From NCBI RefSeq assembly GCF_006345805.1, contig NW_021833123.1:19194-83193 (forward strand): a stretch of DNA of 64,000 nucleotides, written 5' to 3'. Numbering within the stretch: the first letter of the stretch is position 1; every line of letters begins with the position of its first letter. Position numbers and translations under genes: made by a program. The notes beneath the pieces were generated by a model. It was not told the DNA's origin and did not search any database. It saw only the letters and a list, made by a program, of their open reading frames with translations. Origin of the DNA: Octopus sinensis. Lineage: Eukaryota. Of this stretch, positions 51,330-59,867 are shown in pieces.

Positions 51330-52560
51330 TTGGGTTGGCAACTAAGTTCCCACCGTTTCTTTAAATTTAAATTTTTTAAAAGGTTTAATAAAAAATAACT
51401 AATTAATCAATAATTTATTCACCCTTGTTTACAACTTCTTTCAACGTTCAACAAGATTTTCAATACCTCGTTGGTAGAAATCACCTCATTGGTAGAAATC
51501 CAATTAAGCTCTCAATTCTACATCAGTATAGAACGAAACTTATCTCATAGCATTTGAAAGAGATCGAAAGAGGTGGAAATCCGTTGGTGCCAAATCAGGA
51601 GAGTACGGTGGGTGTAGCAGCACTTCCCAGCCATGCGTCTGAATGGCTTCCTTGGTCATATTGGCGATATAAGGGCGGGCGTTGTCGTGCAGCAGAAAAA
51701 CTCCATGCTGCCGATTAGGTCTTTTCTCTTTAATAGTCGTGTTGAGTCGTTCCCTCTGTTGAACATTGAGTTCTGCATTGATCGTTTGGTTCCGTTCAAT
51801 CAATTCGTAATGGATAATCCCTTCCCAGTCCCACCATACGCACAGCATCATTTTACACGGATGAAGATCTTGTTTCGTGCGCTGTGTCACTTGTTTTCCG
51901 GGGTTAAGCCATTCCTTACGCTGCTTCATATTGATGTACAGGCACCATTTTCGTCGCCAGTAACGATTTCTTAAGCAAACCAGCGGAGATTGTGGCTCGT
52001 TGATTTTTGTTGTTGTCACTTAAAGCATGCGGAACCCATGCTCCATACTTCTGAACCTTTCCCATCGAGTGAAGATGCTTCTCTATAGCAGTGTGGGAGC
52101 ATTCCATTTTCTCTGCCAGTTCCCTTGTCGTTTGAAGAGAATTTTCATGCAAAATTTCGTTTAATCGCTCTTCATCGACCTTAACTGGACGGCCAAAACG
52201 AGATGCGTCTTTAAGGTCAAAATTTCTATTTTTGAACTTGGCATACCAATCACGAGCGGTTCTTTCAGCTATGGCACCCTCTCCATACACAACACAAATG
52301 TCGCGAGCAGCTTTTGCGGCCTTAGAACCTTGATTAAAAGCAAAAAGAAGGAGGTGTCGAAAATTCTCGTTTTTCTTAACCTGACATTCCATTCTAAGGA
52401 TCTGAAAATAATCAAAAATTAACTAAAATTAACTAGAAAAAAAATAGATTAAAAAATTAGTCAAAAAATAGAATTCTCGAAAAAAATATAGATTCCAAAA
52501 TTTAAAAACGCAATAAATTCCAAAATTTAAAAAGCGGCGGGAACTTAGTTGTCAACCCAA
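51330..52560 (-). mobile_element. Mariner DNA transposon, mellifera-subfamily-like, complete ends
   Basis: TIRs ttgggttggcaactaagttcccaccg / cggcgggaacttagttgtcaacccaa; TA on the right, CA on the left. Confidence 0.92.
51410..52392 (-). pseudogene. Mariner transposase pseudogene
   Basis: MECQVKKNENFRHLLLF..HTH..WVPHAL; frameshift/deletion near 51970; LCVWWD, HDNARP, HPPYSPDLAPTDFHLF. Confidence 0.92.
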
Positions 52561-58027: not shown

Positions 58028-58116
<89 letters not shown>

Positions 58117-58166: not shown

Positions 58167-58204
58167 CAGTACCGATTTCGGTCATTTTGAGACCTTTTCA
58201 ACTG
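58167..58204 (-). ncRNA. Minimal type I hammerhead, U3-A8 variant
   Basis: Minus strand: cag-TTGAAAA-ggtc tcaaaat gacc-GAAA-tcgg-TA-ctg. Confidence 0.7.
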
Positions 58205-58272
58205 TAACGATTAAATAATTAAATTTAGAAAAATTAGAAGAAAAGTTTTTTTAAAGGAAAATATATATATAT

Positions 58273-58478
58273 ATGAACGCCATGTTGGACCGTTAGCTCC
58301 TGCACGCATTTTTTTCTCTCCTCGTTTCTTTTCTGTGTATCTTTCTGTCGAAGAGCGTAGGCTCGAAACGTAAAAGCCTTGTTTTATTTCTATTCCTGAG
58401 CGCCAAACTAATACAATTGTTTGTTTGTACTCCACCTGCCTTCGTCTTTTGTTTATTTTCATAAACCTTCCCGTTATT
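58273..58478 (+). mobile_element. Short TA-flanked element with HHR-like motif
   Basis: cttt-CTGTCGA-a-gagc gtag gctc-GAAA-CG-TA-aaag at 58341-58376; homolog at 2555-2752. Confidence 0.65.
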
Positions 58479-58647
58479 TATATATATATATATATATATA
58501 CGACACACTGTACATTTAAACGCATAAGTAATCCACTTATGGGAATTGAACACGCTAGAAAGAACAGCTAGGTTCAATAACCACAAAATTGGGGATAAAA
58601 TTCGACAGGAACAAATTGAAAAATGAAGAACATTTTACCATCTAGTT

Positions 58648-58721
58648 TCCTGGAGCAATTGGTTTCTGATTTTAGTTTAGCTAGTCAAGGAACTCGCTAG
58701 GTGCAATCTTCTTCAGCAGGA
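58648..58721 (-). ncRNA. Type I hammerhead (inverted copy)
   Basis: Minus strand: tcctg-CTGAAGA-stem II-GAAA-CCAATTG-CTC-cagga. Confidence 0.7.
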
Positions 58722-58921
58722 CCACCTAGGGTTAAACGTTCCATTTCCTTTTGATATGATTAAATATTGTGTTTTGGATAATTTTCGTTTTAAAAGTTGG
58801 CGGGGTTTTTATTGGCGGTGAAGGGCTGCGGCTGCGCAGAAGATTTTGAAAAAAGTTAGGACGTATTAACACAGGGCAAGTAGTTTGATCGTCCCGTGTG
58901 TATACGTTTAACCCTAGGTGG

Positions 58922-58995
58922 TCCTGCTGAAGAAGATTGCACCTAGCGAGTTCCTTGACTCGCTAAACTAAAATCAGAAACCAATTGGACCAGGA
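58922..58995 (+). ncRNA. Type I hammerhead with extended stem II
   Basis: tcctg-CTGAAGA-a gatt..tagcgagt/actcgcta..aatc a-GAAA-CCAATTG-GAC-cagga. Confidence 0.75.
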
Positions 58996-59238
58996 AACTA
59001 GATGGTAAAATGTTTTTCATCTTTCAATTCGTTCCTGTCGAAATTCATCCCAAATTTTTGTGGTTATAGAACCTAGCTGTTCTTTCCTATAACTGGATTC
59101 CTTATGTGTTTAAATATACACTATATCGTATGACTAATATTTAGTCGTTTTGACTAGATTTTTTACACGTTAGACCACTAGAAATGTAAATTTTAATTAA
59201 TTTCCATTTCCCTTTGATATGATTATATATATATATAG

Positions 59239-59288
<50 letters not shown>

Positions 59289-59292
59289 TATA

Positions 59293-59406
59293 TATAACCA
59301 AGAAAAAAACAACAAGAATGGATCGGTATATTAGTACAATTGTTTCATACTATAAACAATTGTACTAATCTACCGATCCATTCTTGTTGCTTTTTTCTTG
59401 GTTATA
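59293..59406. repeat. Near-perfect ~114 bp hairpin containing an HHR 3' half
   Basis: tataaccaagaaaa..acaattgttt / aaacaattgt..ttcttggttata; minus strand reads GAAA-CAATTG-TA. Confidence 0.85.
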
Positions 59407-59867
59407 ATCACCCCACATAATTTTATGGTTAATACCATAAAGAATTCTGGTGCATCTAAGTTAAGTACCATATTCATTTGAATTCATTTGAATTCATTTG
59501 AATCTTAATAGTTTTGCTGAAATTATATATATATATATATACACATACACACACAAAGACATACGTGCATATGTATACGTACATACATACATACATACAT
59601 ACATACATACATCACTCGCAATCACACACAAATGTTCACTTCTATTTATATACATATATAACAAACGTATTCATGCCTGTATGCTCGTAGTAGTATATGT
59701 GCGTTTAGATGTTTGTATTTTATTCCTTTCTGTTTTGTGAAAAGTTATTTAAAATGTAAAAATCAACACCCACTCACATTAATGTGCACGCGTGTACACA
59801 TATATGTATATAGATTGATATGCGTGTGTGTATATATATATATGCATATATATATATATATATATAT

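Follow-up and report, generated by a model that had tools for sequence, protein, structure and literature searches.

A hammerhead-bearing head-to-head element of Octopus sinensis as a decayed member of a dispersed, ORF-less repeat family, likely of Penelope-like type

The window analysed here, a stretch of 64,000 nt from the genome of Octopus sinensis, contains an element made up of two head-to-head arms, 58498-58739 on the minus strand and 58739-59225 on the plus strand, flanked on both sides by (TA)n, and the question that it raises is which kind of mobile element would leave an inverted arm, a partial tandem repeat and two hammerhead motifs at one TA-rich site. An earlier note, made from the sequence alone, had described it as a hammerhead-bearing retroelement with a 463-bp unit and had made no link to Penelope. 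This link accounts at once for the inverted arm, the partial tandem and the TA target. The reading favoured here, at a probability of roughly 85%, is that the element is a decayed copy of a dispersed, ORF-less hammerhead repeat of ~480 bp, likely a non-autonomous Penelope-like element (PLE) of the kind called non-LTR retrozymes, and likely copied in trans into (TA)n by a PLE RT/GIY-YIG protein.

The inverted arm (58498-58739, minus strand) corresponds to q171-413 of the reference unit; it is 5'-truncated, has its 3' end at a fixed site, B, carries no tail, and runs out into a (TA)n target tract at 58479-58500 that overlaps the last ATA of the arm. It meets the plus arm at 58739, where a single T is common to both. 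The plus arm opens with a 24-nt stub of a preceding tandem unit (58739-58762), identical to the final 24 nt before a second fixed site, A, and continues with one full monomer, 463 bp in this copy (58763-59225), which ends at A and is followed by a second (TA)n target tract (59226-59295). The inverted pair is real, as the earlier note held, since 58585-58739 and 58904-59058 are 94% complementary over 155 ungapped nt, and 58498-58739 against 58904-59131 gives 86% over 243 gapped columns, with 18 substitutions and a 15-nt deletion private to the plus arm (approximate site 59083-59084). The 24-nt direct repeat reported at 58739 and 59202 is likewise present (58739-58762 and 59202-59225, spacing 463).

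To place this copy in its family, the host genome (2.72 Gb) was scanned. The DNA search with the element gave 1,593 candidates, 40 of them scored. The exact intact core had 60 genome-wide matches, which cannot be put down to chance because the reversed control had 0, and exact patterns just past the cut site, at end A and just before end B had 128, 182 and 368 matches, with 0 in the reversed controls. Six other tandem copies have unit spacings of 479-488 bp (L002 482, L014 483, L021 479, L017 481, L025 481, L007 488), so that the spacing of 463, which had been taken for the monomer, is specific to the window copy and reflects deletions in it; the family monomer is ~480 bp. What had been called a 24-bp tail is really the stub of a 5'-truncated upstream tandem unit, and such stubs elsewhere range from a few to ~355 nt. 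The unit is low in GC (30-36%), and its longest stop-free frame is 66-108 aa in three tandem copies. The description of the window copy as best-preserved holds within the window, where it is the sole member of its family, and fails family-wide: its arms diverge from the column majority by 6.1% and 8.7%, about the median of 8.4% (120 segments), and it is an ordinary, moderately old family member. The family is undescribed in the literature searched, a scope that lies outside the repeat databases (Repbase, Dfam), and supplements of the cited papers may list cephalopod families.

Both window arms share the boxes TCCTG-CTGAAGA ... GAAA-CCAATTG(G/C)-NC-CAGGA, and the stem I TCCTG/CAGGA, the CTGAAGA core and the two-part stem II are found in each as had been stated; the palindrome is present too, and in the minus arm it reads CCAATTGC. 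The plus-arm type I hammerhead lies at 58922-58995 (stem I 58922-26/58991-95, core 58927-33, two-part stem II, GAAA 58977-80, palindrome 58981-88), with a predicted cut after 58990 and a U16.1->A lesion at 58989 that turns the cleavage triplet into GAC. Hammerhead cleavage follows the established NUH triplet rule, and by this rule the plus-arm lesion should abolish it. The minus-arm hammerhead (58648-58721, minus strand) has a different lesion, G16.2->C at plus-strand position 58655, which gives the triplet CTC (CUC in the RNA) and breaks the predicted stem III; its minimum free energy (MFE) structure is without the hammerhead fold. Each window copy of the motif therefore breaks either the triplet or stem III, both ribozymes likely having been disabled by later point mutations, and the element is probably dead, with no sign of function. 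Over 34 family copies the triplet columns read G in 31, T in 32 and C in 34, so that GUC, which had been proposed as the ancestor, is the family state. A search of the window against Rfam gave no match at gathering, and an intact copy gave no hammerhead at E<=10.

Family-wide, the features of a type I hammerhead are found: CUGANGA and GAAA boxes, a NUH triplet, and three helices with stem I open. One natural copy (L056) folds as a three-way junction by MFE; MFE z-scores are weak, from -2.1 to +0.2 over five sequences. When the 24 proposed pairs were read over 64 copies, 92.6% of cells were paired, compared with 17-44% in slid-partner controls, and 8 pairs had changed on both sides, in 21 cells, in a sample where about half of the loci were fetched by patterns fixing part of the core and where the changes amount to few subfamily events. 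The core is atypical: position 10.1/11.1 is A.A in 27 and C.A in 7 of 34 copies, with a G-C pair one step further, and the canonical G10.1-C11.1 pair directly closing the core is absent from the family. An axolotl retrozyme is described with a U.U mismatch at this position (PMC7229834). Subfamilies with a 3-bp stem I or with U3 have multiplied all the same, and this, together with the atypical core, speaks against strong ribozyme activity as far as the letters can be read. The palindrome is predicted to pair at -14.4 kcal/mol between two copies and at -1.6 within one, which resembles the dimeric PLE hammerheads described in PMC4209133.

A sister family (L217-L228, L248-L250), first met beside one copy and with one member abutting a copy of the studied family (L019), bears on the same fold. 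It has 2,522 candidates and is 61-65% identical along the unit, with the core kept and the letters of stems I, II and III changed yet paired (by eye), and with the palindrome CCTAGG where the studied family has CCAATTGG. The sister family has the canonical G10.1-C11.1 pair, and it has two 3' ends as in the studied family and also inverted arms. Judged by these alignments, it preserves the predicted fold through compensatory changes, and this is stronger evidence for the fold than the covariation within the family.

The ends of the copies were read in 87 loci (79 new and 8 earlier), taken from the first 100 listed of the 368 matches to the pre-B motif. The 144 arms at these loci end at A in 61 cases, at B in 66 and internally in 17, B being 88-93 nt upstream of A in the reference unit, and 119 of the 127 ends at A or B have a microsatellite no more than 12 nt away. 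Among 100 listed matches at end A, ~21 run on into the next unit and the others stop (hand count). The 5' ends are scattered, with a median arm length of 200 nt, a hot spot of 5' ends at q320-346 and a cluster of junctions at q321-353, near a short hairpin. With 127 of the 144 arms ending at one or other of two fixed sites, the copies are not circularly permuted, a property that had been proposed as a check on a circular template. The true PLE-type tail is the segment of ~90 nt from B to A, present on one arm only; in the window it is 59132-59225 on the plus arm, from site B (~59131-59136) to site A (59225). The family accordingly has what is looked for in a non-autonomous PLE, namely fixed 3' ends, a one-arm tail, 5' truncation, tandem and inverted copies, and microsatellite targets, with (TA)n flanks that make target-site duplications unreadable.

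By an automatic rule, a head-to-head pair is present in 55 of the 87 loci, comprising 37 A+B, 1 B+B, 0 A+A, 7 A+internal and 10 B+internal pairs. Where both outer ends are at A or B, 37 of 38 are thus A+B (binomial p=3e-10 against an expectation of 50%), and hand reading, which recovers very short arms, gives 41 A+B, 1 B+B and 0 A+A; the window copy itself pairs as B+A. These counts bear on a MITE or foldback DNA transposon with TIRs, in which the hammerhead would be incidental. The long inverted repeat and the TA flanks are what such an element would give, but 32 of the 87 loci are without an inverted partner by the automatic rule, the outer ends are A against B rather than symmetrical TIRs at both fixed ends, the inner junctions vary, and one end is truncated in the fashion of a retrocopy, all of which makes a MITE extremely improbable and upholds the view, already taken in the earlier note, of a hammerhead-bearing retroelement.

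The two arms of a locus also share their alleles. In 60 pairs with at least 50 shared columns, arms of the same locus differ at 78 of 687 polymorphic sites (11%), compared with 47% for arms of other loci, and at other sites they differ by 6.6% compared with 9.0%, so that the pair derives from a single source lineage; the shared alleles could alternatively be due to gene conversion within the inverted pair, or to one subfamily being dominant at a time. In 33 of the 37 A+B pairs site B lies within the A arm, so that one stretch was copied twice. The inverted arm could in principle stem from snap-back (self-primed) copying of the first cDNA, or from later DNA rearrangement, without a second priming on RNA; self-priming has been proposed (PMC3846280), and the clustering of junctions at the short hairpin would suit it. 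However, a snap-back copy must stay within the span of the first arm, whereas of the 37 pairs 22 have the B arm, and 15 the A arm, as the one extending further upstream, and such copying would not explain why the second arm stops at B. Since A arms pass B and B arms reach further, neither arm copies the other, and an origin by snap-back or rearrangement is unlikely. Of the 37 A+B junctions, 16 overlap by 1-10 nt, 2 are blunt and the other 19 contain bases that are extra or unaligned. A leader-follower mode of copying on one unit was also considered and rejected, as it predicts longer B arms and the pairs are split 22 to 15 with no correlation. The difference between A and B likely records how the enzyme starts copying on the two DNA strands.

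That the template was longer than one unit, as had been suggested from the direct repeat, is borne out by the 16 of 144 arms that exceed 482 nt. Two whole hammerheads in direct tandem, within up to ~1.7 units, are found at L229 and L247, both with core or stem changes; these rare loci show the two consecutive complete-hammerhead units of a retrozyme, and the long multimers of full units are missing, no arm of at least 2 full units being found among 187 arms and in two targeted tandem searches (longest ~1.7 units). The set of 187 arms is without L003, L006, L028, L049 and L073, none of which extends into a second unit by more than the 24-nt overlap, and one of the tandem patterns matched mostly by chance (23 matches against 43 in the control; of three checked, only L229 belongs to the family). 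The cut site is read through by ~92 of 100 listed copies (hand count), and 8 of 100 begin <=25 nt upstream of it, 4 of these <=4 nt. Near the cut site there are 9 truncation events, a rate of 0.012 per nt where the surroundings have ~0.005 (p=0.02, post hoc), and this mild excess of 5' ends suggests that some templates were linear and cut. The second cut site had looked like a hard 5' limit, all 8 arms beyond x=700 having ended by 766, and this limit was discarded on account of L229 (836), L247 (807) and L246 (781).

A template of more than one unit, mostly uncut, could be either a linear tandem transcript or a circle, and both fit. In a classical circular retrozyme the unit would be cut at two hammerheads and ligated to a circle of ~480 nt serving as template, which is compatible with copying by a PLE enzyme. 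Arms that read through the unit junction and the cut site would be expected from it, the two loci with tandem hammerheads would in principle be able to release a monomer, and a circle would regenerate more-than-unit copies, as proposed in PMC4209133, with circles described in other animals (PMC7229834). Yet a circle sits poorly with the fixed rather than permuted ends, with the lack of arms of two full units in the 187 arms and the targeted searches, and with the mild 5'-end excess at the cut site, and the same data follow from a linear tandem transcript left uncut, unprocessed RNA being given as the main substrate in PMC11167929; a circular template is thus rather doubtful. In four sequencing runs guessed to be RNA, contigs cover 20-25 of 29 unit bins unevenly, with one part nearly bare and with no piece that spans the unit; an inversion joint lies near the cut site in two of these runs and a loose end there in a third, and the coverage speaks neither for nor against a circle. 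This junction, which begins 3 nt before the cut site, is carried by a contig of high depth (L008:1675-1789) in guessed-RNA runs of three studies, and the contig is probably one host transcript containing a head-to-head copy.

A candidate source of the enzyme is present in the host genome. A search with one PLE query, an RT fragment found beside one family copy, gave 150 scored matches of 4,738 candidates, with open frames up to 777 aa, and intact ORFs with RT and GIY-YIG are present at 751-777 aa; two long ORFs that were tested have RVT_1 and GIY-YIG, in each with one match below the Pfam cut-off. In 50 loci around the PLE RT matches there was no DNA similarity to the monomer except for element copies beside RT fragments, a result that weighs against the favoured reading. 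Five copies on C8 spaced ~3.2-3.4 kb apart had been considered as a pLTR-ORF tandem and are really a segmental tandem with mixed TE fragments; at L061-L063 (C8, ~63.3-63.7 Mb), segmental units of ~3.2-3.4 kb combine a copy of the family with an RT fragment of a PLE and with fragments of other TEs. Three further loci, L108, L109 and L116, belong to a young PLE family with intact 777-aa ORFs, whose 3' repeat (~500 nt after the ORF) has a hammerhead-like motif in which CCGAAGA stands for CUGANGA and the base of stem II is mismatched (by eye), and L109 has an upstream open frame of 451 aa without a Pfam match.

The copies might themselves be solo pseudo-LTR (pLTR) remnants of an autonomous PLE, whose ORF was not reached or was lost, and PLE insertions are indeed described as mostly 5'-truncated, with solo and inverted pLTRs common (PMC8557442, PMC4209133). 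Against this, all arms long enough to exceed one unit run into another ~480-bp unit and never into an ORF, the frames in the unit are short, and PLE protein fragments lie near only 4 of 173 family loci, none in pLTR position, which leaves solo remnants an improbable source of the family. The favoured reading is instead that of an ORF-less unit copied in trans.

A PLE protein is described as cutting and extending both strands at AT-rich DNA, with two internal start sites bounding the tail; in vitro, ribozyme cleavage is not needed and the start site is alike on both strands (PMC11167929), the latter weighing against the favoured reading. In copying of the octopus unit in trans, the PLE protein would nick both strands of a TA tract, and each nicked strand would prime reverse transcription at an internal site of its own, A for the one and B for the other. 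The template RNA would stem from a single source locus, would exceed one unit in length and would for the most part be left uncut at its ribozyme. Two cDNAs, both 5'-truncated, would then be joined head to head, often via a few shared bases; in the window copy, the A-primed cDNA would be one unit plus 24 nt and the B-primed cDNA ~240 nt. The ribozyme likely trims the precursor RNA, either weakly or in dimeric form, and an individual insertion likely does not depend on it. A more specific proposal, put forward tentatively, is that the two strands are obligatorily primed at A and B by one and the same PLE complex, probably dimeric, on one-source RNA, so that one stretch is copied twice. The tail would then be a fixed offset between coordinated primings, as opposed to an extension that is optional or a product of resolution. 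If this were true, and with a cut and ligated circle of ~480 nt as template, the family would offer a compact substrate, of cephalopod type, on which the insertion mechanism of PLEs could be settled.

When compared with known systems, the element is a new family of a known class. Like PLE pLTR insertions of Penelope/Poseidon and Neptune (PMC3846280, PMC8557442, PMC11167929), it has a partial tandem, an inverted 5'-truncated copy, a one-sided tail, two RT start sites, an AT-rich or (TA)n target, and a type I hammerhead with a palindromic loop 3; the pLTR anatomy described in PMC8557442 includes a tail of 30-40 bp, and (TA)n targets are described there for Naiads. Unlike Penelope, Poseidon and Neptune, the family is without an ORF, its tail is ~90 rather than 30-40 nt, and the unit repeats itself rather than flanking a gene. 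It shares with metazoan non-LTR retrozymes (PMC7229834; bioRxiv 10.64898/2026.07.22.740005) a non-coding low-GC unit, a type I hammerhead, dispersal and a proposed PLE dependence, and differs from them in its unit of ~480 bp, just above their 150-450, in frequent head-to-head arms, and in that no arrays of at least 2 full units were found. Such retrozymes are described as tandem units of 150-450 bp with circular RNA (PMC7229834), and have been argued to be PLE passengers, with 8 of 9 tested dimers uncleaved (bioRxiv 10.64898/2026.07.22.740005). As in the minimal hammerheads of PLEs (PMC4209133), there is an extra nucleotide after A9 followed by a G-C pair, and a palindromic 15.2-16.2/loop 3; that paper also mentions pairs of motifs on opposite strands, 100-700 bp apart, akin to the arms of the family. 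Unlike these, the family also has an extra A before G12 (the A.A or C.A mismatch), a 3-bp stem III, a two-part stem II interrupted after 4 bp by an internal loop, and an extended stem I.

Several things are thus new here: the studied family together with its sister, a tail of ~90 nt, a mismatch in the core, and a measured A+B rule in which the paired arms share a source. The tail on one arm of PLEs is called 'optionally' or 'often' present (PMC8557442, PMC11167929), and the same two papers treat as an unsettled question how inverted pLTRs and one-sided tails arise. In this family the one-sided tail is near-obligate (37/38) and the arms are of one source, which makes a sharp prediction for the existing in vitro PLE system; the family supports, beyond vertebrates, animal retrozymes as PLE passengers, and its value is as a record of the insertion mechanism.

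Other hammerhead repeats were met in the course of the analysis. Older families with a GAAACCAATTGGTA core (L125-L137) have four head-to-head insertions in 13 loci (L126/L127, L133, L135, L136), and no PLE ORF was seen near these loci or near those of the sister family. Within the window, 58341-58478 on the plus strand is another PLE-type minimal hammerhead repeat, with stem II GAGC/GCTC, which ends at the (TA)n of the left arm; a second window copy has its core at 2677 on the minus strand, both have T at core position 6, and the genome has 64 copies with an exact match to the intact core. At ~58170-58215 on the minus strand lies a decayed motif that resembles a minimal hammerhead and belongs to a third family, with stem II GGTC/GACC (by eye); its element apparently terminates at (TA)n near 58105. 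On the other side, a near-perfect palindrome of ~110 bp extends from the right (TA)n tract (~59295-59408) and is possibly a further short head-to-head insertion. Split transposase frames, which we take to be those of a mariner-like transposase, lie at 51540-52422 on the minus strand.
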